Source of the DNA: Phyllobates terribilis
Taxonomy: Eukaryota
Assembly (NCBI RefSeq): GCF_046119375.1
Contig: NW_027362769.1
Coordinates: 363,878,001-363,942,000, forward strand
DNA: 64,000 nt
Direction: 5' to 3'
Of this stretch, positions 3,227-63,735 are shown piece by piece. How positions within the stretch are numbered: position 1 is the stretch's first letter; every line of letters begins with the position of its first letter. The position numbers were made by a program, and so were the translations under genes. The notes under the pieces are model-generated. The model was not told the origin of the DNA. It did no database searches and was given only the letters and a program-made list of their open reading frames with translations.

Positions 3227-4322
3227 CAACCATCACATGGACATCATACACACAACGGGCACAACCATCACACACATACATCATACACACAGCGGGCACA
3301 ACCATCACAGGGACATCATAAACACAACGGGCACAATCATCACACAAACATCATACACACAACGGGCACAACCATCACACGGTCATCATACACACAGCGG
3401 GCACAACCATCACACGGACATCATACACACAGCGGTCACAACCATCACATGGACATCATACACCCAACGGGCAGAACCATCACACAGACATTATACACAC
3501 AGCGAGCATAATTATCACACGGACATCATACACACAACGAGCACAACCATCACACACATACATCATACACACAGCGGGTACAACCATCACACGGACATCG
3601 TATACACAATGGGGACAACCATCACACGGACATCATACACACAGCGAGCATAACTATCACACGGACATCATACACACAGCGTGCACAACCATCACACGGA
3701 CATCATACACACAACGAGCGCAACCATCACACACATACATCATACACACAGCGGGCACAACCATCACACGGACATCATACACACAACGGGCACAACCATC
3801 ACACACACACACATCATACACACAGCGGGCACAGCCATCACACGGACATAATACACACAGCGGTCACAACCATCACACTGACATCATACACACAACGAGC
3901 ACAACAATCACACAGACATCATACACACAGCATGCACAACCATCACATGGACATCATACACATAACGGGCACAACCATCACACACACAGCGGGCACAACC
4001 ATCACACGGACATCATTCACACAACGGGCACAACCATCACACGGACATCATACACACAGCGAGCATAACTATCACACGGACATCATACACACAGCGTGCA
4101 CAACCATCACACGGACATCATACACACAACGAGCACAACCATCACACACATACATCATACACACAGCGGGCACAACCATCACACGGACATCATAAACACA
4201 ACGGGCACAATCATCACACAGACATCATACACACAGGGGGCACAACCATCACAAGGACATCATACACACAACAGGCACAACCATCACACACACACACACA
4301 TCACACACACAGCGGGCACAAC
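3227..4322. repeat. Continuation of CA-rich minisatellite
   Basis: Same unit resumes directly after the CR1 tail. Confidence 0.97.
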
Positions 4323-5560
4323 TGTGGCGCCCCTGAGGGTTCAGTCGCCACAGAGGTACTGCACCTCAACCAGAGGTGTGGTATCTCCTTCTCTCAGGTA
4401 AGGAGGGAGTGCTGCCCGGAACCCCAACACCCACATTCAACACTACACTGCTCCAGGCCGGCTGGAGGGGCAACATGCATTCGCAAAGCTGAACCCTGTC
4501 CCTGGCTGGAGTGGGGGGGAACCCAGAGGTAGGGGGAATCAGTAGTGGGTGTGGGTGGAGGAAATAGTTTAGAGGAGCACCATTACAGGAGGTATATAAA
4601 AAGGGAAGCCATCTTAGGGTGGCAGTGCAGTAGAGCTCAGTGAGTGAGGGAAATCAGTCTGGGAGCAGAGGTTCTTTAGGAGCTCTGCTCCACAAGTAGG
4701 GCCCAGTCCTAGAGGCCCAGGAGGGGAGCAGATGAGTAGGCTCCGATCTACAGAAGGGATCCTAGGGAGTACGGCGAGTGCAGGACGGCACCCGTACGTC
4801 CCGAATCTGTCAGAAGACAGAGGGATCGTAGGCCGCAAGAAGGGGACCGGCCCCTGGTCCAGCCGTGTTACTCTAAGTCTCGGCTGGGAAAACCGGAGGC
4901 TTCTGGCTTATATAGTCAGTTGCCGAAGCCTCATTCTAATCCCCGTGAGGGTCAAGCAGGTCCGGGAACTCCAACAAGACAGGAGGGACTTCAGAGCACC
5001 CGAGCAGGATTGAGAGTGGGGAAGCGCAGGGCAGGAGGGAGAAAGACCCAGCGTGAACACAAGAAAGTGGGGATCTGTCAGGTGCTTCAAATCTGCCTGA
5101 CAAAGAGCTGAACCACTGCCTGGTGAATGCAGAGCGACGTGGGAGGCTAGCACCCGTACAGTGCACCAGTGGAACTGTCATAAGAACTGTGAGTAAAAAC
5201 TCAGATGACTGCACCGTACTGCCTCCGTCCATTCTTTCATATGCGCCCTCTTGCCTCCTGGCACTACAACGCCCAGAGCAAGTTACACTACCTACACTGC
5301 CCTGGAGCTAAGCTCTACCTGTGGAGAGCCACACCATCCCTGCTGCCGTAACACCAGCTCCAGAGGACTGCTCTGCAGCGGCGGCTCCCTTTAGCCGCAT
5401 TCCACAGGTGGCGTCACGAACACTGCAGAAATCCCCTATAAATATTACCCCCCTTTTTGGTGACCGCCCTGGGCCACGGACCGGGCCAGCCACCGTGATA
5501 TCCCCCACCAGCATCCATAGGCCCGGCTGCCGAGTACCCCACGGCTCTGGGGGCGCGTCA
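4323..5560 (+). mobile_element. Solo LTR (1238 bp), Gypsy-like, related to the 6665-15168 element
   Basis: TGTGGCG...GGGGGCGCGTCA termini; flanks CAAC/CGAC (4-bp TSD, 1 mismatch); TATA-like GGTATATAAAAA near 4591; AGTAAA 5192-5197; last 12 nt GGGGGCGCGTCA shared with the LTR ending at 7906. Confidence 0.88.
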
Positions 5561-6052
5561 CGACCATCACACACATCATACACACAGCGGCACAATCATC
5601 ACATGGACATCATACACACAGCGGGCTCAACCATCACACGGACATCATACAGACATCATACACACAACGGGCACAAGCATCACACAGACATCATACACAC
5701 AACGGGCACAATCATCACACGGACATCATACACACAACGGGCACAATCATCACAAGGACATCATACACACAACGGGCACAATCATCACACGGACATCATA
5801 CACACAACGGGCACAATCATCACACGGACATCATACACACAACGGGCACAATTATCACACGGACATCATACACACAAAGGGCACAACCATAACACAGACA
5901 TCATACACACAACGGGCACAATTATCACACGGACATCATACACACAACGGTCACAATTATCACACGGACATCATACACACAGCGGTCACAACCATCACAC
6001 ACACACATCATACACACAGCGGGCACAACCATCATACACACAGCGGGCACAA
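5561..6052. repeat. Distal part of CA-rich minisatellite
   Basis: Unit resumes after the solo LTR. Confidence 0.95.
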
Positions 6053-6664
6053 CATGACATGTATATATTCACTTCTTCTCCATCATGTCTCCAGTGGCAG
6101 TGGTGGGGCCTGGTGTTTGCAATCAGCAGCAGAGGATGGGCTGTACGCAGGAGAGCTGTCAGCCCTGCAGTGTCCCTAAATCCCCTTCCCATCTCCCCTA
6201 GTCCCGACTGCAGAGCTGCTGGTGACTTTGCATGAGCCCCCTCCCATCCTGTAATAACAGCAGCTACAGATGGGAGAGGCTGAGGGTCTCCCCCCTCACC
6301 TCAGGACAGCACCTTGTTGTCATGTCCTCCGCAGACTTGGCCCCGCCCCCTGTCCCCTCACCTCCTCATGCTGTGCGGTCTCTCTGCACAGTAGAATTCC
6401 TCTGCACTGATGCCGGGGAGGAGCAGGGAGCGGGAGGCGGAGCTACAAGGAGTCACACACAGCATGGAAAGTCTGCATGTCTGGAAAAAAAAAGCCCAGT
6501 GCCTAGCAACGCCCCTGCCGGGAGAAGAGCTGAGCCGGGACGGGACTGAGCCCTCAAATCGGGCCAGGCCCAGGGAATAGGGGAGGGTTGTTAGCTATGG
6601 ATATTATACCAGCCTCCTATTATTCTGTGTATAATATGGGATGTCTGTGCCTATAGTATATATA

Positions 6665-7906
6665 TGTAGCACCCTGAGGACTCGGCTGCTACAGGGGTAT
6701 TACACCTCAAGCCAGAGGTGTGGTATTCCACTCCCGGGTAAGGATGGAGTGTGGAACTGAGCTCAGATAGCTGCATATACTACATACATCCCATTTCCGG
6801 GGGACAGATCGACGGTACTCCCACCAATATATGTGCAGGTACGATAGTGTCTGTCCCTGGCTGGAGTGGGAGGGGGGTGGAACATCCCAGTAGTGTAGGG
6901 GCAGATAGGGGGAGCAGTCTGGGTAATGCTAGGAGCTCATTGGGTGCTGGTCACCTGAGCTCACACATAGAGGGAGTATATAAGGTGGGCACCATCTTAG
7001 ATCAGGGTCAGTCTTTTGTAGTGTGAGTCAGAGGAGCAGAGCAGAGAAGCTCAGCCAGAAGGGCTGACAGGGAGTTGTGGTTCCGGCTGGGCCCAGCTCC
7101 AAGGCCAAGTCTGAGAGAGAGAGAGAGGAGTCAGAAGGACCCAGAGAGAAGAAGAAGGAACCCCAAGACCCCAGAATACAAACAGCAGGGTGAAGGGTTG
7201 GCACCCAGGGTACCGGATCCCAAGCTGGCAGAGAGAAAAGCACACCTTAGCCAGAGACCGGAGGTCGTGGGCAGGATCTGCCACGACCCTCACTAAATCC
7301 ACTAGGAAGGCATACCAAGTATAGGGTCAGGGAACCCAGAAGAGGTGTACCCACCAAGAGACCCGAGGGAGCCGGACATAAGTGGATCCCTAGTGAGAAC
7401 GGCCAGAAGAGAGGGAAAGTCAGACAGGAGCTCAGGACCACGCTCCAGAATTGCTTGGGGGTTGGCCGAGTCCAGGACCTGGTGGACGCAGCACAGCTCG
7501 GGTGGTCGCTTCAGGCCAGAGTGACCATAAGAACACCCGTAAGTAAAAACCCCTGAACTGCACAGCCCGACTCTGAGTCTTCTTGCTTAGCTCTCCTGCA
7601 CCTTCACAACCACCATCCTCTACATCTGACCCCCTGAGGCTATACCCCTCCCGTTGGGGGTTATACTACCACAGCGGCACACATACCACCAGCCTCAGCA
7701 GACCCTTCTGCAGCGGCGGCCTTTTGACCGCAAATCAACGGGTGGCGTAGTCGACACTAAGAACACCAATAACATCTATCAAGACTGCCACACACTGAGT
7801 TTGACACCCTGGGCACGGACCGGGTCGCCGCCACTCGGAGACTACAACCCCCATCTGATCCGGCTCCGGGTAATCCCCAAACAGCACTGGCCCAGGGGGC
7901 GCGTCA
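6665..7906 (+). repeat. LTR1 (1242 bp)
   Basis: TGTAGCACCC...GGCGCGTCA; TATATAA near 6977; CCATCTT; AGTAAA 7542-7547; near-identical to 10296-11537 and 13927-15168. Confidence 0.95.
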
Positions 7907-7910
7907 ACTT

Positions 7911-7929
7911 TGGCGTAGTCGGCAGGATT
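7911..7929 (+). promoter_or_regulatory. Primer-binding site, tRNA-Ser (AGA/TGA type)
   Basis: TGGCGTAGTCGGCAGGATT, 4 nt after the LTR, is the reverse complement of the vertebrate tRNA-Ser 3' end ...AATCCTGCCGACTACG-CCA (recalled sequence). Confidence 0.9.
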
Positions 7930-8023
7930 TCGTGCCCGCAACCACCGGGTACTGCGTGCCTGAAGAAAAGTTCCAAATTTACCTCAAGAAGAAGTTTCCC
8001 GCCGGTTCCAGAGGGTCCCCGCC

Positions 8024-9829
8024 ATGGGACGCCATCACGGATCGTTTCCCGCCGGTTGCCCGCCATCTGCAGCTTTTTCCCGCCATTTCCAGAAGATTTC
8101 CCGCCTTGGAAGAGCGGACGCCATTATGGGCGTGCCAGAGGGTGGCAAGAGGTCACCTCCCATCGTGGGCCAGGTCAAGGAATGGCGCCAAAAGCGGAAA
8201 CCGCCCCCACCAACGGAGACTGTGATGCTGGAGATGTCCATCAGCGTGAGAGAACTGCCCCTGGAACTGACAATCACAAAGTTGCCCCGGGACCACCTTC
8301 AATGTGGGCGGAGACAGAACAAGAGAGAGAAGATGGGTGCAGCCTGGAGGAGTCTGGAGAGAGCGCACCCGGAGACAAGAAGTCTGGAGAGGACTCCGGA
8401 GAAGCCGTACCCGGAGATGGAGGGAGAGGCAGGCAGCACCGACCCAGTGGTCAGGAGCCTGTTGCAAGCGACAACCCCAGAAGGCCTGGTGGAGATCCTG
8501 GCACAGCTCCCCCGAGACCGGGAGCGTGCACAGACCGCACTGGAGGGCTTGGCTCAGAGGATGGCCCGAGTGCAGCGGGACGTACTGGCCGCATGGAGCA
8601 GAGAGATGGCCCAGCAGGCTGGAACCCGCCAGCGAAGCACGCCACCCGAGACGAGGAGACAGACCGCCTCTGAGGATGGTGCAGGAGGAGTGAAGGCCGG
8701 AGACGGCGCCGAAGAGGGAGCTGAACAGATGGAGGCAGGTAAAGGGGACGTCACTACCCCGAGCCGAGAAACCGCGTGCCTGCCCCAGCTCCCCGTCGCA
8801 GAGCCCGAAATTCCCCCTGTCGTGCCCGTCGCTGCATCGTCACCGCTCCAGACAAGGCCTCAAGCAGAAGCCGCGGCCGCGACCCCTGTGACGTCACGCG
8901 CCTCAACCCTGAGCGCGGCAAAGCAGGAAACACCACCGGCCTGGTCGCAAGGTCTAGTACCCCCGGGCGCCGCAGTACCAACAGCGCCCTCTACCTCCAC
9001 TGAGCCACCGGCCTGGTCGCTGGGCCAAGTAACCCCGGGCGCCGCCGTCTTCACGGTGCCCTTTACGTTCAGGGTACCCCAGGCCTGGTCGCAAGGCCTG
9101 GCGAACCCGGGCGCCGCCACCACCACCGCGCCCTCAACATCTAGAGTGCCGCACCTGGGTGAAGATTTGTTTGCCCAGCACACGTGCCCGGATGGGCAGC
9201 CCTTTGTGTGGCCACCGGAGTTCCACCATCCCCGACTCCGGAAAGAAAGACCCCTAGATGAGCCCCTGATTCCGGTTCCGAAGCCCGTTAAGATCACCCC
9301 ACTCTCGTTGGAGGAAGCGCAGTTTGCGTGGGACCCCACCGGAGGAGACCTCATGGGATTCACCCAAGAGACTCGGGCAGCCGCAGCTGAGCGTGCGGAG
9401 TGCTGCCGGCAGCAGTTAGAGGTCTTTGACCGCGAGCGAAGAGAGAGGCGGGTCCGAGAGCAGCGGCTGCAGGAACAGAGCGCAGGGCAGAAGAGCAGGA
9501 CCAGGAGGAACCCCCGTGCAGCCCACGGTCCCCGTGCCACCGGGACTGTAATTAAATTCCAACTGCAGCACGGTTGGGGTTTCATCAGGGATCATCACAC
9601 CCCCGGCGACGTCTTTGTCACCCGCAGAGACGTGGAGTCCCATCTGCCGGAGGGACACAGAGGTCGTGACCTATATGTAGGGGACGAGGTCACGTTCACC
9701 CGGCACAAGTGTGCCAAAGGACCCTACGCCCTCCATGTACACCGGCTGACGGAGGAGGAGCTACGGTGTGAAGAGGAGCAAGAGGATCCGGACGGGTCTG
9801 AAGGAGGAGCAGGAGTACGCCGTCATTAA
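8024..9829 (+). CDS. 601-aa element-encoded protein with C-terminal cold-shock domain, copy 1
   Basis: Uninterrupted ORF with strong Kozak (GCCATGG); residues ~505-575 match the CSD pattern; preceded by a charged helical stretch and three ~24-aa repeats. Confidence 0.85.
   Translation: MGRHHGSFPAGCPPSAAFSRHFQKISRLGRADAIMGVPEGGKRSPPIVGQVKEWRQKRKPPPPTETVMLEMSISVRELPLELTITKLPRDHLQCGRRQNKREKMGAAWRSLERAHPETRSLERTPEKPYPEMEGEAGSTDPVVRSLLQATTPEGLVEILAQLPRDRERAQTALEGLAQRMARVQRDVLAAWSREMAQQAGTRQRSTPPETRRQTASEDGAGGVKAGDGAEEGAEQMEAGKGDVTTPSRETACLPQLPVAEPEIPPVVPVAASSPLQTRPQAEAAAATPVTSRASTLSAAKQETPPAWSQGLVPPGAAVPTAPSTSTEPPAWSLGQVTPGAAVFTVPFTFRVPQAWSQGLANPGAATTTAPSTSRVPHLGEDLFAQHTCPDGQPFVWPPEFHHPRLRKERPLDEPLIPVPKPVKITPLSLEEAQFAWDPTGGDLMGFTQETRAAAAERAECCRQQLEVFDRERRERRVREQRLQEQSAGQKSRTRRNPRAAHGPRATGTVIKFQLQHGWGFIRDHHTPGDVFVTRRDVESHLPEGHRGRDLYVGDEVTFTRHKCAKGPYALHVHRLTEEELRCEEEQEDPDGSEGGAGVRRH
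9536..9748 (+). other. Cold-shock domain (OB fold) coding segment, copy 1
   Basis: TGTVIKFQLQHGWGFI (RNP1-like) ... GDVFVT (RNP2-like) ... LYVGDEVTF ... AKGPYALHV parallels CspA TGIVKWFNADKGFGFI...DVFVH...LDEGQKVSF...AKGPAAGNV. Confidence 0.88.
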
Positions 9830-10286
9830 AGTACGGTAAAGAGACTGTATATAGTTACCCGTCAGGGTATAAGAACTGTTACTGCTGCTAGTTAAAATAT
9901 AGTCCCCGTTGGGACCAGCAAATTGAACTGAAACCCGTGTGTCCCTATTCCCACTGACCGAGGACTGAGAGCGGTCATTCCTTTCCTGATACCTGGCCGA
10001 GGACTGAGAGCGGCCATACCTTCCCTTGTATATAGTTGCGCTTTCTAAGGCGCCCCCTACCGGTTTATAGGAAACTGTTGTTTTTACTACAAGAGACTGT
10101 CGCACTTTACCCGGTCACAAGTTGCACCGTGGCCGGAGGAACAAGAGTGTTATTTATGAAAAGCTTTATATGAAAAGTTTATGCTGATAATATATGATGT
10201 TTTATATGTTTATGTTTTATGAAATAAAATGTATGTTTGTGGATGTTTATGTTCTCTTACAGCCCGAGGACGTGCTGTGATTTACC

Positions 10287-10295
10287 AGGGGGGAA
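10287..10295 (+). promoter_or_regulatory. Polypurine tract
   Basis: AGGGGGGAA immediately before the TG of LTR2. Confidence 0.85.
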
Positions 10296-11537
10296 TGTAG
10301 CACCCTGAGGACTCGGCTGCTACAGGGGTATTACACCTCAAGCCAGAGGTGTGGTATTCCACTCCCGGGTAAGGATGGAGTGTGGAACTGAGCTCAGATA
10401 GCTGCATACACTACATACATCCCATTTCCGGGGGACAGATCGACGGTACTCCCACCAATATATGTGCAGGTACGATAGTGTCTGTCCCTGGCTGGAGTGG
10501 GAGGGGGGTGGAACATCCCAGTAGTGTAGGGGCAGATAGGGGGAGCAGTCTGGGTAATGCTAGGAGCTCATTGGGTGCTGGTCACCTGAGCTCACACATA
10601 GAGGGAGTATATAAGGTGGGCACCATCTTAGATCAGGGTCAGTCTTTTGTAGAGTGAGTCAGAGGAGCAGAGCAGAGAAGCTCAGCCAGAAGGGCTGACA
10701 GGGAGTTGTGGTTCCGGCTGGGCCCAGCTCCAAGGCCAAGTCTGAGAGAGAGAGAGAGGAGTCAGAAGGACCCAGAGAGAAGAAGAAGGAACCCCAAGAC
10801 CCCAGAATACAAACAGCAGGGTGAAGGGTTGGCACCCAGGGTACCGGATCCCAAGCTGGCAGAGAGAAAAGCACACCTTAGCCAGAGACCGGAGGTCGTG
10901 GGCAGGATCTGCCACGACCCTCACTAAATCCACTAGGAAGGCATACCAAGTATAGGGTCAGGGAACCCAGAAGAGGTGTACCCACCAAGAGACCCGAGGG
11001 AGCCGGACATAAGTGGATCCCTAGTGAGAACGGCCAGAAGAGAGGGAAAGTCAGACAGGAGCTCAGGACCACGCTCCAGAATTGCTTGGGGGGTGGCCGA
11101 GTCCAGGACCTGGTGGACGCAGCACAGCTCGGGTGGTCGCTTCAGGCCAGAGTGACCATAAGAACACCCGTAAGTAAAAACCCCTGAACTGCACAGCCCG
11201 ACTCTGAGTCTTCTTGCTTAGCTCTCCTGCACCTTCACAACCACCATCCTCTACATCTGACCCCCTGAGGCTATACCCCTCCCGTTGGGGGTTATACTAC
11301 CACAGCGGCACACATACCACCAGCCTCAGCGGACCCTTCTGCAGCGGCGGCCTTTTGACCGCAAATCAACGGGTGGCGTAGTCGACACTAAGAACACCAA
11401 TAACATCTATCAAGACTGCCACACACTGAGTTTGACACCCTGGGCACGGACCGGGTCGCCGCCACTCGGAGACTACAACCCCCATCTGATCCGGCTCCGG
11501 GTAATCCCCAAACAGCACTGGCCCAGGGGGCGCGTCA
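10296..11537 (+). repeat. LTR2 (shared middle LTR)
   Basis: LTR1 + 3631 bp; preceded by a PPT and followed by a PBS. Confidence 0.95.
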
Positions 11538-11541
11538 ACTT

Positions 11542-11560
11542 TGGCGTAGTCGGCAGGATT
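11542..11560 (+). promoter_or_regulatory. Primer-binding site, tRNA-Ser (second unit)
   Basis: Identical to 7911-7929. Confidence 0.9.
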
Positions 11561-11654
11561 TCGTGCCCGCAACCACTGGGTACTGCGTGCCTGAAGAAAA
11601 GTTCCAAATTTACCTCAAGAAGAAGTTTCCCGCCGGTTCCAGAGGGTCCCCGCC

Positions 11655-13460
11655 ATGGGACGCCATCACGGATCGTTTCCCGCCGGTTGCCCGCCATCTG
11701 CAGCTTTTTCCCGCCATTTCCAGAAGATTTCCCGCCTTGGAAGAGCGGACGCCATTATGGGCGTGCCAGAGGGTGGCAAGAGGTCACCTCCCATCGTGGG
11801 CCAGGTCAAGGAATGGCGCCAAAAGCGGAAACCGCCCCCACCAACGGAGACTGTGATGCTGGAGATGTCCATCAGCGTGAGAGAACTGCCCCTGGAACTG
11901 ACAATCACAAAGTTGCCCCGGGACCACCTTCAATGTGAGCGGAGACAGAACAAGAGAGAGAAGATGGGTGCAGCCTGGAGGAGTCTGGAGAGAGCGCACC
12001 CGGAGACAAGAAGTCTGGAGAGGACTCCGGAGAAGCCGTACCCGGAGATGGAGGGAGAGGCAGGCAGCACCGACCCAGTGGTCAGGAGCCTGTTGCAAGC
12101 GACAACCCCAGAAGGCCTGGTGGAGATCCTGGCACAGCTCCCCCGAGACCGGGAGCGTGCACAGACCGCACTGGAGGGCTTGGCTCAGAGGATGGCCCGA
12201 GTGCAGCGGGACGTACTGGCCGCATGGAGCAGAGAGATGGCCCAGCAGGCTGGAACCCGCCAGCGAAGCACGCCACCCGAGACGAGGAGACAGACCGCCT
12301 CTGAGGATGGTGCAGGAGGAGTGAAGGCCGGAGACGGCGCCGAAGAGGGAGCTGAACAGATGGAGGCAGGTAAAGGGGACGTCACTACCCCGAGCCGAGA
12401 AACCGCGTGCCTGCCCCAGCTCCCCGTCGCAGAGCCCGAAATTCCCCCTGCCGTGCCCGTCGCTGCATCGTCACCGCTCCAGACAAGGCCTCAAGCAGAA
12501 GCCGCGGCCGCGACCCCTGTGACGTCACGCGCCTCAACCCTGAGCGCGGCAAAGCAGGAAACACCACCGGCCTGGTCGCAAGGTCTAGTACCCCCGGGCG
12601 CCGCAGTACCAACAGCGCCCTCTACCTCCACTGAGCCACCGGCCTGGTCGCTGGGCCAAGTAACCCCGGGCGCCGCCGTCTTCACGGTGCCCTTTACGTT
12701 CAGGGTACCCCAGGCCTGGTCGCAAGGCCTGGCGAACCCGGGCGCCGCCACCACCACCGCGCCCTCAACATCTAGAGTGCCGCACCTGGGTGAAGATTTG
12801 TTTGCCCAGCACACGTGTCCGGATGGGCAGTCCTTTGTGTGGCCACCGGAGTTCCACCATCCCCGACTCCGGAAAGAAAGACCCCTAGATGAGCCCCTGA
12901 TTCCGGTTCCGAAGCCCGTTAAGATCACCCCACTCTCGTTGGAGGAAGCGCAGTTTGCGTGGGACCCCACCGGAGGAGACTTCATGGGATTCACCCAAGA
13001 GACTCGGGCAGCCGCAGCTGAGCGTGCGGAGTGCTGCCGGCAGCAGTTAGAGGTCTTTGACCGCGAGCGAAGAGAGAGGCGGGTCCGAGAGCAGCGGCTG
13101 CAGGAACAGAGCGCAGGGCAGAAGAGCAGGACCAGGAGGAACCCCCGTGCAGCCCACGGTCCCCGTGCCACCGGGACTGTAATTAAATTCCAACTGCAGC
13201 ACGGTTGGGGTTTCATCAGGGATCATCACACCCCCGGCGACGTCTTTGTCACCCGCAGAGACGTGGAGTCCCATCTGCCGGAGGGACACAGAGGTCGTGA
13301 CCTATATGTAGGGGACGAGGTCACGTTCACCCGGCACAAGTGTGCCAAAGGACCCTACGCCCTCCATGTACACCGGCTGACGGAGGAGGAGCTACGGTGT
13401 GAAGAGGAGCAAGAGGATCCGGACGGGTCTGAAGGAGGAGCAGGAGTACGCCGTCATTAA
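11655..13460 (+). CDS. 601-aa CSD-containing protein, copy 2
   Basis: Intact ORF; 4 amino-acid differences from copy 1 (G/E, V/A, P/S, L/F); CSD identical (13167-13379). Confidence 0.85.
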   Translation: MGRHHGSFPAGCPPSAAFSRHFQKISRLGRADAIMGVPEGGKRSPPIVGQVKEWRQKRKPPPPTETVMLEMSISVRELPLELTITKLPRDHLQCERRQNKREKMGAAWRSLERAHPETRSLERTPEKPYPEMEGEAGSTDPVVRSLLQATTPEGLVEILAQLPRDRERAQTALEGLAQRMARVQRDVLAAWSREMAQQAGTRQRSTPPETRRQTASEDGAGGVKAGDGAEEGAEQMEAGKGDVTTPSRETACLPQLPVAEPEIPPAVPVAASSPLQTRPQAEAAAATPVTSRASTLSAAKQETPPAWSQGLVPPGAAVPTAPSTSTEPPAWSLGQVTPGAAVFTVPFTFRVPQAWSQGLANPGAATTTAPSTSRVPHLGEDLFAQHTCPDGQSFVWPPEFHHPRLRKERPLDEPLIPVPKPVKITPLSLEEAQFAWDPTGGDFMGFTQETRAAAAERAECCRQQLEVFDRERRERRVREQRLQEQSAGQKSRTRRNPRAAHGPRATGTVIKFQLQHGWGFIRDHHTPGDVFVTRRDVESHLPEGHRGRDLYVGDEVTFTRHKCAKGPYALHVHRLTEEELRCEEEQEDPDGSEGGAGVRRH

Positions 13461-13917
13461 AGTACGGTAAAGAGACTGTATATAGTTACCCGTCAGGGTA
13501 TAAGAACTGTTACTGCTGCTAGTTAAAATATAGTCCCCGTTGGGACCAGCAAATTGAACTGAAACCCGTGTGTCCCTATTCCCACTGACCGAGGACTGAG
13601 AGCGGTCATTCCTTTCCTGATACCTGGCCGAGGACTGAGAGCGGCCATACCTTCCCTTGTATATAGTTGCGCTTTCTAAGGCGCCCCCTACCGGTTTATA
13701 GGAAACTGTTGTTTTTACTACAAGAGACTGTCGCACTTTACCCGGTCACAAGTTGCACCGTGGCCGGAGGAACAAGAGTGTTATTTATGAAAAGCTTTAT
13801 ATGAAAAGTTTATGCTGATAATATATGATGTTTTATATGTTTATGTTTTATGAAAAAAAATGTATGTTTGTGGATGTTTATGTTCTCTTACAGCCCGAGG
13901 ACGTGCTGTGATTTACC

Positions 13918-13926
13918 AGGGGGGAA
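13918..13926 (+). promoter_or_regulatory. Polypurine tract (second unit)
   Basis: AGGGGGGAA before LTR3. Confidence 0.85.
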
Positions 13927-15168
13927 TGTAGCACCCTGAGGACTCGGCTGCTACAGGGGTATTACACCTCAAGCCAGAGGTGTGGTATTCCACTCCCGGG
14001 TAAGGATGGAGTGTGGAACTGAGCTCAGATAGCTGCATACACTACATACATCCCATTTCCGGGGGACAGATCGACGGTACTCCCACCAATATATGTGCAG
14101 GTACGATAGTGTCTGTCCCTGGCTGGAGTGGGAGGGGGGTGGAACATCCCAGTAGTGTAGGGGCAGATAGGGGGAGCAGTCTGGGTAATGCTAGGAGCTC
14201 ATTGGGTGCTGGTCACCTGAGCTCACACATAGAGGGAGAATATAAGGTGGGCACCATCTTAGATCAGGGTCAGTCTTTTGTAGAGTGAGTCAGAGGAGCA
14301 GAGCAGAGAAGCTCAGCCAGAAGGGCTGACAGGGAGTTGTGGTTCCGGCTGGGCCCAGCTCCAAGGCCAAGTCTGAGAGAGAGAGAGAGGAGTCAGAAGG
14401 ACCCAGAGAGAAGAAGAAGGAACCCCAAGACCCCAGAATACAAACAGCAGGGTGAAGGGTTGGCACCCAGGGTACCGGATCCCAAGCTGGCAGAGAGAAA
14501 AGCACACCTTAGCCAGAGACCGGAGGTCGTGGGCAGGATCTGCCACGACCCTCACTAAATCCACTAGGAAGGCATACCAAGTATAGGGTCAGGGAACCCA
14601 GAAGAGGTGTACCCACCAAGAGACCCGAGGGAGCCGGACATAAGTGGATCCCTAGTGAGAACGGCCAGAAGAGAGGGAAAGTCAGACAGGAGCTCAGGAC
14701 CACGCTCCAGAATTGCTTGGGGGTTGGCCGAGTCCAGGACCTGGTGGACGCAGCACAGCTCGGGTGGTCGCTTCAGGCCAGAGTGACCATAAGAACACCC
14801 GTAAGTAAAAACCCCTGAACTGCACAGCCCGACTCTGAGTCTTCTTGCTTAGCTCTCCTGCACCTTCACAACCACCATCCTCTACATCTGACCCCCTGAG
14901 GCTATACCCCTCCCGTTGGGGGTTATACTACCACAGCGGCACACATACCACCAGCCTCAGCGGACCCTTCTGCAGCGGCGGCCTTTTGACCGCAAATCAA
15001 CGGGTGGCGTAGTCGACACTAAGAACACCAATAACATCTATCAAGACTGCCACACACTGAGTTTGACACCCTGGGCACGGACCGGGTCGCCGCCACTCGG
15101 AGACTACAACCCCCATCTGATCCGGCTCCGGGTAATCCCCAAACAGCACTGGCCCAGGGGGCGCGTCA
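13927..15168 (+). repeat. LTR3
   Basis: LTR1 + 7262 bp; followed by TATA (TSD) rather than a PBS; TATA box altered (GAATATAA). Confidence 0.95.
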
Positions 15169-17735
15169 TATATATTATACCACATACAGGCTAATATGTA
15201 ACTAGTGCACATTACACCATGAGTACAGACATTAGATATTACACCAGTCACGTATTATCCTCTACAGCTCTTTAATATCTGTGGCGCTATTGTCCCCGCC
15301 GATCCTACCACAGACCGAATAATGCTACTGTCACACGATCAGTATTTTGTCAGTCTTTTTCTTGAGTATTTGGAAGCCAAATCCAGATGAGGAGCAATCA
15401 GAGAAAAGGTATAATACATACCAGTGCATATATTCTGCATTTATCACTCTCCTGGTTTGGCTTACAAATATGGATAGTGAGACCATATCCTCACATAATC
15501 TACCAGCAGCCTGATGGGTGTTATGCCGGGGTCTTAGTGCACAGGACCCGGTCATTACACGGCGTCCATCTACAGCTGGGACATTTCCTGTGAACACTCG
15601 CTCTCCCCTATCACCCGCACGGGTCTGATCCTGAAGATCTCATGTATCAGAATCCAGTTGTTCATCCCAAGATAGTTTGTATTTATCATCTGCCACATAA
15701 TGGATGAGTGGGACCGAACTCAGCATGGGCTGGGGGAGCAGACAAGGCACCAGTATAATTCAGGGGTGAATAAGCAGACACACGGCCACTGAGGAGTTAA
15801 ATGGAGGAAATACTTGTATCCGGTATTGGTCGGTGCCTGAGGATGTCTGTCAGTCATTGGCTGATCACAGATCCGTTGGTGATTTTGAAATTCCCGCTCA
15901 ATCGTTGTTCTTTGTCCTCCGGATTATTTATTAACGACTCCTGTTAATAGCGGAGATCGCAATTTGAGCAATCCGGTCTGGGGGCAGCTCTACCCCGCTG
16001 AGAATACAGGGTCCTCTCCTCCAGAGCGGTCTGCCCCCGAACAAATGTGATCGTTCTCCTGATTGGCAGGTGGAGGATGTGCCGGCCTTGTTATTATTCT
16101 GGGAGGTTATTATCCTTTTGAGGCCGCCATCCATCCGAGACTCCAGTGCCCAGGACGCGGTCATCACACAGACGTCCGTATTCCGGCTACACAGGGCGTC
16201 CATCCAGCTGCCTCATACGGACACATTCCCTGCGAGTATTCGCTGCCTCTACAACACAATCGTATTTGATCCTGTTAATATCAAGATCAACACATTCATC
16301 TGACTGCAGTATGATAGGATTTCTGCTGTGTATTAATCGCAGCACAGAGAGCTATGTACTGTGTGCACAGAGGTATCTATCATGTATGACATTGCTGCAG
16401 AGTTATGACTTGGTGACAGATTGCAAATGTCAGAAACTTCTTACTGCTGTCCATGTTTCTGCTGTATCATTTATTCTCTACAATCTGCATTAGAAACATA
16501 ATTTATTATACATATAATGATAGAAAAGGATCCAGAACCAAGATCTCATCTCATCCGTCTTCCTGATTGAGCCCAGCCGCTAATATCTCCCCATATCCTG
16601 CAGGAACAACAACCTGTAAGAGGCGGCAGCTGCACTGACAGCACAGAGGCCACTTCTCCCCGGGGAGACTTCATCTTCTTACAATCAGATTGGTGATCGG
16701 AGCTCTCTGCACTTCCGCAGTGATTTAATCTTATAGTATATTAACACTTTTCTTTCCAGACTACTAAAGTCCTCTGATCTTTTATGGACTTACTATTTTC
16801 ATCGTTGTTATTATACAGATGGAGATTGATGCTCAGATCTGAGTCTTATTGTTTGTTTTCTCAATGTGTCACCGAGATCCCCTATATTCGTTATACATCG
16901 CTACATCTGGTATTAGAGGAAGTTATCTAGAGATTGTATTGGGATATTTCTCCTCTTAACAAGGGATTCATTGTTCTCCTCTTCATTCTTGGAGCTTCTA
17001 CATGTGGATATATTGCCCGAGAGCCGCCCGTCCTGACACTGGATAAAGGGGAGGAGGACAAGTGAAAGAGCAGAAGAACGAGCAGTAACGGAGCAGGAAT
17101 CTATAGAAAAGGAATAAAGCTCCTGTGAGGGTGTGATGACCGATAACCTAACTGCATGTCTGACCTATGGGATCCGGACAACAGTGTAATTTTCTGAGCA
17201 ATCTGCAATACATGATCGTACATGTCCTGTCACACACTTCCTCCCTGTAGCTGTACAATTGATCTGTACATGAATTACTGGATTAAACTACTGGGGAGAT
17301 GATCGGGGGGATATGGTGGGGTCAAAGCAGAATTGGTCTTCCCTGAAATATCGCATGTAGGATGCGTCCCTGGCTAGTATATCGTATAAAGGGAGGTCAG
17401 ACACACGGGGCACATCACAGCTTTTGGCTGATTCACTCTATATATCTATGAAAGGAAACCGAAGCATCCCTGACCCCGGGTCTTGTATTATAGAAAGCGG
17501 AGACTGCTCAACTAAAATCTCCAGACTCCTGTATGGGATGTAAACGACCAATATAAGTCGGTCATAGAACCTCGTGTTATATGGGGACAAAGAACAGAAA
17601 AGCCATCAGCCACTGAGCGGGAACTTCAAACTCATGGACAAAAAGTCACGTGACCTGTGTAAGCTGCGCCCGCTGCGTCTTATTGGTGTTTCCACACGTC
17701 TGCTCTCCATTGGCGGCTTCAGATCCATCCAATGA

Positions 17736-33471: not shown

Positions 33472-34481
33472 TGACTTGCCCCCTGAGCCGTGGGGCACCC
33501 GGAACCGGGCTTTAGTGCGATGATGGGGGTAGTAGTGGCAACCCCATCCCGTGGCTCAGGGTGGTCAGACCAAATGCTGTGGCAGTCTATTTGTAGAGTT
33601 ATGAATGTCCGACTACGCCACCCGTGGGTTGCGGTCAGGGATGACCGCCACTGCAAGGCAGACCGCTGATGCTGGTGTGCAGCACAGGGATAGGATAACT
33701 CCCAACGGGAAGAGTGTAGCCTCAGGGAAGCGTATGTGAATGCTGGTGGTGATAGTGCAGGCCGCAATAATAAGAGTTCAGAATCCGCTTCAAACAGTCC
33801 AGGGTCTTTATTGTAGGTATTACTAATGACCCGACAGGAGTACCGGGTAGGAATGGGCCTGGGTGTCTGAGAGCATTCGGGCGAGCCCCACTGGTCAGGG
33901 TGAGTGTGAAGGCCTACCGTTCTCACTCTGCCCTTGCTGACTATCCCCCTTTTCGTGGTGTAATAGCCCACGTCCCTGAGCTGGCCATGTACTTCGCCTG
34001 TATGGCTTGCGACTCGGGCCTTGGGTACCTTTTGCTTCCTCGTGCTGTACCGGTCCCTCTGTGTGGCGGAGCCTCCAGGCTTCTTAGGCCAAGGGACCTG
34101 AAATCCCTCGCGGGTTGGTTCTCTGCTGCTGGGCTTGCAACCCTGACAGCCTCGGACCCCAATGTCCGTTGGTGTAGTTCTCTCATCCAGAACCGGCTCT
34201 CGTCACCTCTGTCCCTGGCTCGCAGCTTCTCCTCTGCCTCACGGACTCCTTGGCTACAGCTGAACTGTCCCTCCTTCTCTGGGACTAGTCTCAGTCCTGA
34301 GCTAGGTCGTCCAGTTCTCTCTAACCCTGCCCTCAGTTCCAGCTTTTATAAGGGCAGCCAGCTCCACCTACTGGCCTGGGACAGGAGGTGCTGTATGCTA
34401 ATTGTCCCTGACCAGGGAACCTAACTCCTGCTCTCAGACACAGCCTATAATATTTGTGGCATCCAGGCCTGGGGTGACACA
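33472..34481 (-). mobile_element. Solo LTR (1010 bp) of the same lineage, minus strand
   Basis: Minus strand TGTGTCACCCC...GGGGGCAAGTCA; CCCC TSD (33468-33471 and 34482-34485); empty paralogous site at 47902-47905; TATAAAA, AATAAA (33807-33812). Confidence 0.9.
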
Positions 34482-60837: not shown

Positions 60838-63714
60838 TGTGGCACCCCTGAGGGTTCGACCGCCACAGGAATGCTGCACTTCTCTAATGGAGTGTAGTGT
60901 TCCTCCTCTGAGGTAAGCCCGGTGTGATGGTCGCGACCCAGCCTTGCATCCAACACCACACTTCTCCACCAGAGGGAGCTAGTATGCACTAGGTGTTGCT
61001 CCCCTGGTTACAGGGAGACTGGGGAACACAAAGTGGTAGGAACCAGTTAGTGGGTGTGGGTGGAGGACTTACAAGTTAGTTACACCTTAAATTTCATATT
61101 TAATAGAAAGCCATCTTTGATCTTGGTCTGTTGTTCTTCTCTGGTCCTTTGTCTAGCCCAGGGGTCCTCAAACTTTTTAAACAGGGGGCCAGTTCACGGT
61201 CCCTCAGACCATTGGAGGGCCGGAATATAGTTTTTAAAAAAAACTATGAACAAATTACTATGCACACTGCACATATCTTATTTTGTAGTAAAAAAAACAA
61301 TACAGGAACAAATACAATATTTAAAATGAAGAACAAGTAAAGTTAAATCAACCGGTATTTCAATAGGTAGGTAACTGTACCCAATAGGCAGCATAGGTCC
61401 TCAATAGGCAGGTAAATGTCCCCAATAGGCAGCATCGGTCCTCAATAGGCAGGTAAATATCCCCAATAGGCAGGTAAATGTCCCCCATAGGCAGGTAAAT
61501 GTCCCCAATAGGCAGCATAGGTCCCCAATAGGCAGGTAAATGTACCCAATAGGCAGCATAGGTCCCCAATAGGCAGGTAAATGTCCCCAATAGGCAGCAT
61601 AGGTCCTCAATGGGCAGGTAAATGTTCCAAATAGGCAGGCTGTTTCCCCCTTATAATGCCATATGCAGGCTGTTCCACCCCTTATAATGCCCCATGCAGG
61701 CTGTTCCCCCCCATATAATGCCCCATGCAGCATGTCACCCCCCCATATAATGCCCCATGCAGCATGTCACCCCCCCATATTATGCCCCATGCAGCATGTC
61801 ACCCCCCCATATTATGCCCCATGCAGCATGTCACCCCCCCTATATTATGCCCCATGCAGGATGTCACCCCCCATATAATGCCCCATGCAGGATGTCACCC
61901 CCCATATAATGCCCCATGCAGGATAACACTCCCCTGTCTTTATTATACCCCATGCAGCATGTCACCCCCCACATATAATGCCCCATGCAGCATGTCACCC
62001 CCCATATAATGCCCCATGCAGCATGTCACCCCCCCAATATAATGCCACATGCAGCTTGTCACCACCCCCATATAATGCCACATGCAGCATGTCACCCCCC
62101 CCATATCATGCCCCATGCAGGATGTTTACCCCCCCCATATTATACCCCTTGCAGCATGTCACCCCCCCATATAATGCTCCATGCAGGATGTCACCCCCCA
62201 TATCATGCCCCATGCAGGATGTCACCTCCCCATATTATACCCCTTGCAGGATGTCACTCCTCCATATAATGACCTATGCCTCCATACATTAAAAAAAAAA
62301 AAAAAATCCAATACTCACCTCACTTCTCACCTGCTGCCGCTGCCGCTGCCCTACTCTGGTCTGGACTCCAGCGTCGCGGCGGCGTCGTCCCGCTCTGCGC
62401 TGCCTGTGACGGCACTCGGGAGGGCGCGGTGTAAAGACGTCACCGCATCCTCTGACCTGAGACGTCACAGAAAGCGCAGAGCAGGAAGACAGCGGATCTG
62501 CAGAGGCACAGGGAGAGGTAAGTATCCGCCTGCCGGGGCCCTGAGCAAGCGGGGGAGAAGGGCGGGTGCTGACACCGCTCCCCTCTCCTCCACCCATAGC
62601 CCGGCGGGCCGGATAAAAGTCCTCCGCGGGCCGCATGTGGCCCGCGGGCCGTAGTTTGAGGACCCCTGGTCTAGCCTTTGCTAGTCTGTCGGCTGTGTCT
62701 GTGCGGTCAAAATACTGTGTGCAATGTGACCTCCCTCCGGGAGCGCAGATCCTATGTGGGCCTGCGCCGGTAAGGGACACAGCCCTCGTACCCTGGCCTT
62801 GGGACGAGAGGTAGGTTGTAGACAAGGAATGTCTCAACCCGGCCAAGGACCAGGATCAAGAAGGCCCTGGGAGCTTTAGAGTGTGGCTCCCCAGCAAATG
62901 GGTCCCGGGGAGGATGCAGACGGAGCGGAGCACGCCACCTGTCATCGCCTACCTGATCTATTCAGAGGGATTCCGGCTGCAAGAGGGGTACCGGCCCTCG
63001 ACACCCGACCTTGTACTCTATGTTCTGGACGGGAAAGCCCGGTTAGGCCCTGAGGATCCCACCGGGCATCGGATGGAGAGGAATTGCCATCCGTGCCCTA
63101 GTCCTGAGAGGAGCTCAGAGGGAGACCCGGCCTATCTACACACGCACAGACGGGAAAGGGTGAAGTTTATAGTGCAGGAACACTCTGGTGTAGGGTCGCT
63201 ACCGAACACTGGACTTTCTCGGAGGTAGTCGGACCCCCGTCCCTGGTGGCCGCAGGACTCCGCGGGGAGCAGGGAGTCGCCTTCCCGCTGACATCTCTAA
63301 GTGAGTAAAGCCTTGGAAGTTCACCCCTATGGCCTCTGGAGTGTTCATTACGCGCCATACCATGCGACGCGGTGCCCGTACTCCCCGCACTACTACCCCC
63401 TCTCTTTCCTGTTTGCCTGCCCTGAGGCCTTGCTCCGCCTGTGGGGAGCAGCGAGAACTTTAGCCGCCATGACACCGGGCCTCAGCGGACTGCAGCGGCG
63501 CTGGTGACCCTTCACCAGGCACCACAGGTGGCGTAGTCGTTAAAATAAGCCACTCAACCCGGACAAGCCCACAGCATCTCTTTCTAATGTGACGGCCCTG
63601 AGCACGGGTCGGGCCTAGGCCACGGCTGCATCCCATCTCTCCATCACAGGGCCCGACACCGAGTCCCCCATCACCCAGGGTAAAACATGGGTTTCTCTGA
63701 GTAGAGGCGTCACA
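60838..63714 (+). mobile_element. 5' LTR (~1.36 kb net) of a further related LTR element, interrupted by a hAT MITE; internal region runs off the window
   Basis: TGTGGCACCCCTGAGGG start, AGTAAA 63304-63309, ends GGCGTCACA, followed by a PBS. Confidence 0.82.
61159..62668. mobile_element. Non-autonomous hAT (Charlie-like) MITE, 1510 bp
   Basis: 16-bp TIR CAGGGGTCCTCAAACT/AGTTTGAGGACCCCTG; 8-bp TSD GTCTAGCC (61151-61158 and 62669-62676); internal minisatellites. Confidence 0.93.
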
Positions 63715-63717
63715 ACC

Positions 63718-63735
63718 TGGCGTAGTCGGCAGGAT
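63718..63735 (+). promoter_or_regulatory. Primer-binding site, tRNA-Ser
   Basis: TGGCGTAGTCGGCAGGAT, 3 nt after the LTR end. Confidence 0.88.

Follow-up and report, generated by a model that had tools for sequence, protein, structure and literature searches.

The mechanism by which LTR elements choose and change their primer tRNA has been called unknown (PMC10886601). Drosophila gypsy contains two 11-nt binding sites for tRNA-Lys,2, and its cDNA synthesis depends on the 5′ PBS alone (PMC1635307). Barthez1 and Barthez2 are 7.6–7.9 kb long, with LTRs of 1,025–1,116 bp and a gag of 355–359 aa (PMC11117352). The animal Helenus elements generate 4-bp target duplications and are likely mobilised by Gypsy (PMC10886601). 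In Gmr1 the integrase precedes the RT, which corresponds to the copia-like order (PMC4131045).

The locus described here is a solo LTR within a 64-kb window (the whole stretch of DNA that was analysed). It carries two short complements of one tRNA, the first matching its 3′ end and the second its 5′ end. The genome-wide counts of PBSs and of site–PBS pairs given below are exact matches in the 10.6 Gb genome of one species, the host. The features of the LTR are as follows.

4323–5560, plus strand: solo LTR of a tRNA-Ser(CGA)-primed Gypsy family, 1,238 bp, TG...CA ends, situated in a 35-bp satellite
5192–5197, plus strand: likely poly(A) signal AGTAAA, with AATAAA at the aligned position of the LTR at 33 kb
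5318–5324, plus strand: 5′ strand of helix P1 (CCTGTGG), covarying with 5402–5408
5402–5408, plus strand: 3′ strand of helix P1 (CCACAGG), immediately preceding the site
5409–5422, plus strand: U5 site, the 14-mer TGGCGTCACGAACA, complement of the last 14 nt of tRNA-Ser(CGA), CCA included
5489–5499, plus strand: 5′-end box GCCACCGTGAT, complement of tRNA-Ser(CGA) nt 1–11 with one G-U pair

The site lies about 150 nt inside the LTR and is 10–14 nt long in the elements studied; judging from the position of the likely poly(A) signal, it would belong to U5. Within the window TGGCGTCACGAACA has a single match, even when up to two mismatches are allowed. The first-pass annotation had identified these 14 letters as the reverse complement of the tRNA-Ser(CGA) 3′ end. 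The host gene confirms this: TGGCGTCACGAACA is exactly complementary to CCA together with the final 11 nt of the tRNA-Ser(CGA) gene L033 (ARAGORN), the sole full-length 100% match among 40 scored of 676 candidates. ARAGORN finds no tRNA gene in the 64-kb window itself. The tRNA-Ser(CGA) matched by more than 8,000 PBSs is apparently encoded by this single gene; the arrayed Ser(CGA/TGA) genes on contig C11 (L176–L204) differ in the acceptor stem.

The relatives of the solo LTR within the window carry a different motif, TGGCGTAGTCG, which matches host tRNA-Ser(AGA/TGA) genes (28 matches; ARAGORN calls Ser-AGA for both loci given). It occurs eight times in the window against 0.42 expected, five times inside LTRs at the homologous place (7743, 11374, 15005, 33610–33620 on the minus strand, 63529) and three times as a true PBS (7911, 11542, 63718). 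The earlier statement that the other LTRs bear the complement of another tRNA is thus correct. The AGA-type features of the window are listed below.

6665–15168, plus strand: tandem array of a non-autonomous AGA-type relative, with three 1,242-bp LTRs and two internal parts
7743–7753, also 11374–11384 and 15005–15015, plus strand: AGA-type U5 site, by motif match
7830–7845, plus strand: bulged AGA-type 5′-end box, by complementarity to the tRNA 5′ end
7911–7928, also 11542–11559, plus strand: true PBS for tRNA-Ser(AGA/TGA), 18 nt, by match to the host tRNA
7964–9829, plus strand: 621-codon open frame with a C-terminal cold-shock domain (Pfam CSD), without RT
33472–34481, minus strand: solo LTR of the AGA type, U5 site at 33610–33620
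63529–63539, plus strand: AGA-type U5 site of a second AGA lineage, by motif match
63618–63629, plus strand: unbulged 12-nt AGA-type 5′-end box with two G-U pairs, by tRNA complementarity
63718–63735, plus strand: true PBS for tRNA-Ser(AGA/TGA), by motif match

The array is arranged head-to-tail with shared LTRs and a period of 3,631 bp; its LTRs differ at 2–4 of 1,242 sites and a TATA duplication flanks it. The start of a further related LTR is found at 60838–61067. Long low-complexity frames with a cold-shock domain at their end (Pfam CSD, E 1e-7) occur at 7964–9829 and 11595–13460 and in L147, L152, L244, L245, L247 and L249, and are carried by non-autonomous members of several lineages. 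Their product is possibly an RNA chaperone. The literature search returned no description of such a frame.

The solo LTR had been described as having switched from one tRNA complement to another. The differing site is real; it is not specific to this copy, being the normal state of a separate CGA-primed family. Among 30 loci of this family, the exact 12-mer is present at the U5 site in 25 and a form with one or two changes in four, and one site was not extracted. Three of the loci have a 5′ LTR, and in each of them the PBS is of the Ser(CGA) type, unaltered in one and with a single G-to-A change in the other two, so full-length copies with this LTR use the matching PBS, as had been anticipated. 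The family copy L021 possesses a PBS and a gag match. The target duplication flanking the solo LTR reads CAAC/CGAC, and perfect 4-bp duplications were found at the family loci L009, L010, L012 and L022. The solo LTR with an identical satellite flank was found repeatedly on contigs C9 and C11 (L002–L008, L010–L016), implying that it spread along with the satellite or through segmental duplication. In CGA families (L039–L068) the terminal CA of the LTR is separated from the PBS by a spacer of variable length (about 3 to 10 nt), which suggests variable end trimming at integration.

The autonomous relatives are about 7 kb long and encode a PNMA-like gag, a protease, RT, RNase H and integrase, together with a weak dUTPase-like match. 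The order gag–PR–RT–RNase H–integrase, found in L140, L145 and L149, is that of Ty3/Gypsy, and so are the TG...CA LTRs, the PBS, the polypurine tract and the target duplication. Membership in the Gmr1 clade is rejected because the integrase sits after RNase H. In L140, L145, L148 and L149 no frame of at least 200 codons lies between pol and the polypurine tract, where an env gene was sought by frame length only. The nearest named pol proteins (96–98%) come from a dendrobatid frog, and many more at about 52–80% come from other frogs and from teleosts. A search of viral contigs for relatives gave no matches, and three metagenome matches are due to chance. Rfam has no match in 4200–16000, and a ribozyme or known RNA family there is rejected on this basis.

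The relation between the U5 site and the primer was studied genome-wide by counting 13-nt U5 motifs located 125–175 nt upstream of an exact PBS. The exact pairs comprised 52,033 AGA/AGA, 3,166 CGA/CGA, two AGA/CGA and one CGA/AGA (U5 site/PBS). The correlation between site and PBS identity across families, on which the first-pass annotation had staked its reading, therefore holds in 55,199 of 55,202 pairs. The three mismatched copies include L101, a chimera with two different LTRs, and L100, in which two 97%-identical AGA LTRs surround a CGA PBS. Mismatched forms arise and have not spread. In samples anchored on the PBS, the cognate 11-mer was found upstream with at most one mismatch in 25 of 30 CGA and 29 of 30 AGA loci, and the other type in none of the 60. 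Five of the 11 letters differ between the types, in step with the PBS, and a reading of the site as a DNA motif is rejected. A search for a third tRNA type at the U5 site gave 55 matches; none of the 20 inspected adds a type, as 13 are AGA LTRs in decay, one is an LTR interrupted within the site, and the remainder are gag sequence or unrelated. The duplicate site is absent from all 30 control elements with a third Ser-like PBS; tRNA-Ser priming therefore does not generally require it.

The site repeats nt 1–11/14 of the PBS. Its match covers CCA, the discriminator and the acceptor strand and then stops, after nt 10–11 in the AGA type or nt 13 in the CGA type, which is near the end of the acceptor strand. 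In the AGA type nt 1–10 are conserved in 27–29 of 29 and nt 11 in 22; in the CGA type nt 11–13 are conserved in 29, 28 and 25 of 29. At nt 15–16 at most two of 29 match. The true PBSs are numerous, with 8,117 exact CGA and 69,769 exact AGA copies (77,886 in total). In L031, L034 and L035, three of eight loci inspected, the PBS continues far into the tRNA-Ser(CGA) sequence, up to the anticodon arm. We read these extensions as probable footprints of priming by tRNA-Ser(CGA), likely produced by read-through beyond the usual 18-nt stop.

A second U5 element that changes with the tRNA type, the 5′-end box, is an addition to the earlier observation. It typically lies 70–100 nt upstream of the PBS and is complementary to tRNA nt 1–11/12. 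The cognate tRNA is predicted to pair better at the box in 22 of 27 CGA and 29 of 31 AGA elements, a comparison that excludes four of the 60 sampled loci and the three mismatched loci; the main AGA lineage favours the cognate tRNA by no more than about 1–2 kcal/mol. The AGA type has two box forms, unbulged in the lineage at 63.5 kb and bulged in the main lineage. A transitional lineage (1,091 matches to its pattern) combines a CGA-like U5 core and an AGA site with a CGA box to which three letters have been added, giving the AGA match; its PBS is AGA in all 20 loci inspected. Since this lineage keeps the CGA core and box together with the AGA site and PBS, we infer a CGA-to-AGA polarity for the main lineage. 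Three elements with the third Ser-like PBS (L109, L120, L123) have, upstream of the PBS, a near-perfect match to the 5′ end of arrayed tRNA-Ser genes and no duplicate site, so that the 5′-end box may be more widespread than the site.

The box also bears on the partner of the site. The first-pass annotation had proposed selection for pairing with a tRNA or a 3′ tRNA fragment and not for the DNA sequence. The tracking of the PBS type by the site agrees with the tRNA part of this proposal; the fragment is a less likely partner than the whole tRNA because the box, which matches the tRNA 5′ end, covaries too. It is correspondingly very improbable that the site is a decoy for inhibitory 3′ tRNA fragments: such a decoy would explain why the match begins precisely with CCA and tracks the PBS, but one of 11–13 nt would be expected to compete poorly with the 18-nt PBS, and the box indicates a whole tRNA.

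The number of primer switches was estimated from trees. The RT tree needs one switch, with four CGA copies forming a clade and the fifth weakly sister (74) to six AGA copies. LTR trees of 71 LTRs, obtained after near-copies and poor sites had been thinned out, need four changes (three forced) when the site and the box are removed, and the tree of the tightly linked core, likewise without site and box, needs two. None of 200 bootstrap trees allows a single change. The counted changes are inflated since the LTRs are mosaic, and AU tests on the core and upstream sets, which also omit L058, leave a single switch unrejected (p=0.24 core, p=0.08 upstream). Together with the single switch needed by the RT tree, this implies that descent and tight linkage explain much of the concordance. 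The change is one of families, and no more than about 160 nt separates the site from the PBS; the large pair counts therefore reflect roughly two evolutionary events and are not independent evidence. On these trees there was at least one switch, and two are likely.

Products of priming at the site are rare. A U5 context followed by the full 18-nt match is found at only three loci genome-wide. Two of them are deletions that fuse the site to the PBS. In the third, L135, the match spans all 18 nt in the 5′ LTR and the usual 12 in the 3′ LTR, a templated overwrite of one LTR only, which indicates that a switch need not be built by selection. LTRs breaking at the CA upstream of the site number two against 2,454 intact, and routine priming at the site is rejected on this count; a control position gave one match, a point mutant. 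Of the 59 matches in an AGA context, 30 were inspected, and 28 of these continue as LTR. L302 shows the form expected of priming at the site, with a full 5′ LTR and a 3′ LTR that ends at the CA before the site, with an imperfect duplication in CA-rich satellite. A true PBS comprises 18 nt just 3′ of the LTR end and leaves LTRs that end there; this is not the pattern found at the site. The rare overwrites and truncated LTRs hint that a tRNA may sit at the site and occasionally prime there, and DNA-level rearrangement would explain them equally well. An identical short deletion of the start of the U5 site was seen in four LTRs of different subfamilies (L317, L322, L323, L328), and the search pattern favours that breakpoint.

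The L135 overwrite, confined to one LTR, and the unrejected single switch are what would be expected if the site were a functionless relic, occasionally rewritten from a tRNA or PBS and carried along by linkage. We regard this as quite unlikely, as the site is nearly invariant while the next 30–50 nt are free to diverge, overwrites and fusions amount to three in the genome against 77,886 exact PBSs, and the box has changed too.

The RNA predicted around the site is structured. P1 occurs in three covarying forms, each with complete Watson-Crick pairing, which together account for 53 of 71 LTRs (38+9+6). RNAalifold, unaided, predicts P1 and two inner helices with compensatory changes; it leaves the tRNA-specific letters of the site unpaired, and the first six nt of the site, weakly paired, are able to extend P1. 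In the named structure 93% of cells pair against 30–48% when it is slid; the kinship of the sequences inflates the shuffle control. The covarying P1 would speak for selection at the RNA level and is counted in favour of the best explanation given below. The box lies in the loop of a further helix that is 87.5% paired, and its unpaired fraction in single-sequence folds is 0.77 in AGA and 0.45 in CGA elements. In the same kind of folds, which are heterogeneous, the site is predicted to be mostly paired (mean unpaired 0.27 AGA, 0.34 CGA), and in many AGA elements a downstream strand can pair with it.

Such pairing could mean that the site acts in cis, as a copy of the PBS that absorbs leader strands otherwise blocking the PBS, and that the tRNA never binds it. 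An AGA strand 110–135 nt upstream of the PBS is indeed predicted to pair with the site or the PBS, and in CGA elements a 6-bp helix between site and box is possible. Against this, predicted pairing between site and box is low (mean 0.07 pairs AGA, 0.73 CGA), and nt 11–13 of the CGA site are conserved and complementary to the tRNA and have no partner in the box, as is seen in the LTR of the window. The order of the box fits the tRNA 5′ end, and in this LTR the box has a C opposite G7 of the tRNA where the site has an A. A folding switch in cis is therefore considered unlikely.

The adjacency of the site to P1 is also relevant to a second tRNA, which might reside at the U5 site as a structural ligand, with a role in dimerisation, in packaging or in switching between translation and packaging, and leave priming at the PBS to another tRNA molecule. 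Its binding would displace the weak extension of P1, the same site–PBS covariation would result, and tRNA-bridged dimers have been described for Ty3 (PMC5371799). However, each element was found to have a single 5′-end box, in whose absence the short match is weak, and a bound 3′ end could misprime, whereas such products are nearly absent. We consider this arrangement unlikely.

Pairing of the site with a tRNA in trans is probable. We propose that the site on the element RNA would dock the 3′ end of the primer tRNA, that site and box, which match both strands of the acceptor stem, would unzip it, and that the 3′ end would then move on to the 18-nt PBS, with the 5′ strand still held by the box. 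Capture and unzipping followed by transfer are favoured because one tRNA cannot pair with the site and the PBS together and because site and box match both acceptor strands. The complementarities, their joint change with the tRNA type, the covarying helices and the rarity of priming products were observed, whereas the binding, the U5 location in the transcript and the hand-off are inferred. The overall explanation, in which site and box form a docking site that opens the acceptor stem before the tRNA moves to the PBS, has in our judgement about an even chance of being right, and the hand-off from site to PBS, taken by itself, slightly less than that. More tentatively, U5 might be an RNA primer-loading device, a two-sided clamp working by strand exchange, whose three-part code is rewritten for each new tRNA with the help of rare tRNA-templated overwrites.

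In this superfamily a change of primer went along with matching changes in three sequence elements. A sequence rule also follows by which the primer of a family can be read from its solo LTRs. More than 55,000 copies can be scored, in two primer states, along with a lineage caught in transition and a few copies in which site and PBS disagree. As a loading dock, the site would represent a new way of primer annealing. A U5 duplicate of the tRNA 3′-end match was not found in the literature searched, mainly open-access papers.

The described systems share single traits with these elements. Barthez-type vertebrate Gypsy elements resemble them in size, the only feature compared (an element of about 7 kb, LTRs above 1 kb and a gag of about 350 aa here), and the Barthez clade, suggested by sizes, is a lead only (PMC11117352). 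Like the Helenus TRIMp3 elements, they have tRNA-related sequence inside the LTR (PMC10886601). In Helenus the LTRs of short non-coding elements hold tRNA-derived sequence that is regarded as a Pol III promoter (PMC10886601), whereas the present elements are coding, 3–7 kb long, and contain short antisense matches and no tRNA gene. Drosophila gypsy is likewise a Gypsy element with a second tRNA-binding site (PMC1635307). Its second site, however, lies near the RNA 3′ end and binds anticodon/T-stem sequence (PMC1635307), while the one described here lies in U5 and duplicates the 3′-end match. The bipartite and multipartite PBSs of Ty3 and Ty1 also involve element–tRNA pairings beyond the PBS and tRNA-linked dimerisation (PMC5371799). 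Their parts bind separate regions of one tRNA simultaneously (PMC5371799), whereas the elements described here have a complete 18-nt PBS and a site that would compete with it for identical nucleotides; in a bipartite PBS of the Ty3 type the second site matches a different tRNA region, which is true of the box and not of the U5 site. The box is best compared, by analogy, with the PAS and A-rich loop of HIV-1 and the U5–T-arm interaction of HIV-2 and avian viruses, where U5 sequence pairs with a tRNA strand freed by PBS annealing (PMC3185550, PMC11251516). Its complementarity and covariation were observed, and by this analogy it may serve as a PAS-like U5 activator. The excerpted accounts of the HIV and avian systems describe no duplicate of the 3′-end match, and the PAS binds the 5′ strand of the T-stem (PMC3185550, PMC11251516), whereas the box matches the 5′ acceptor strand and nt 8–11.
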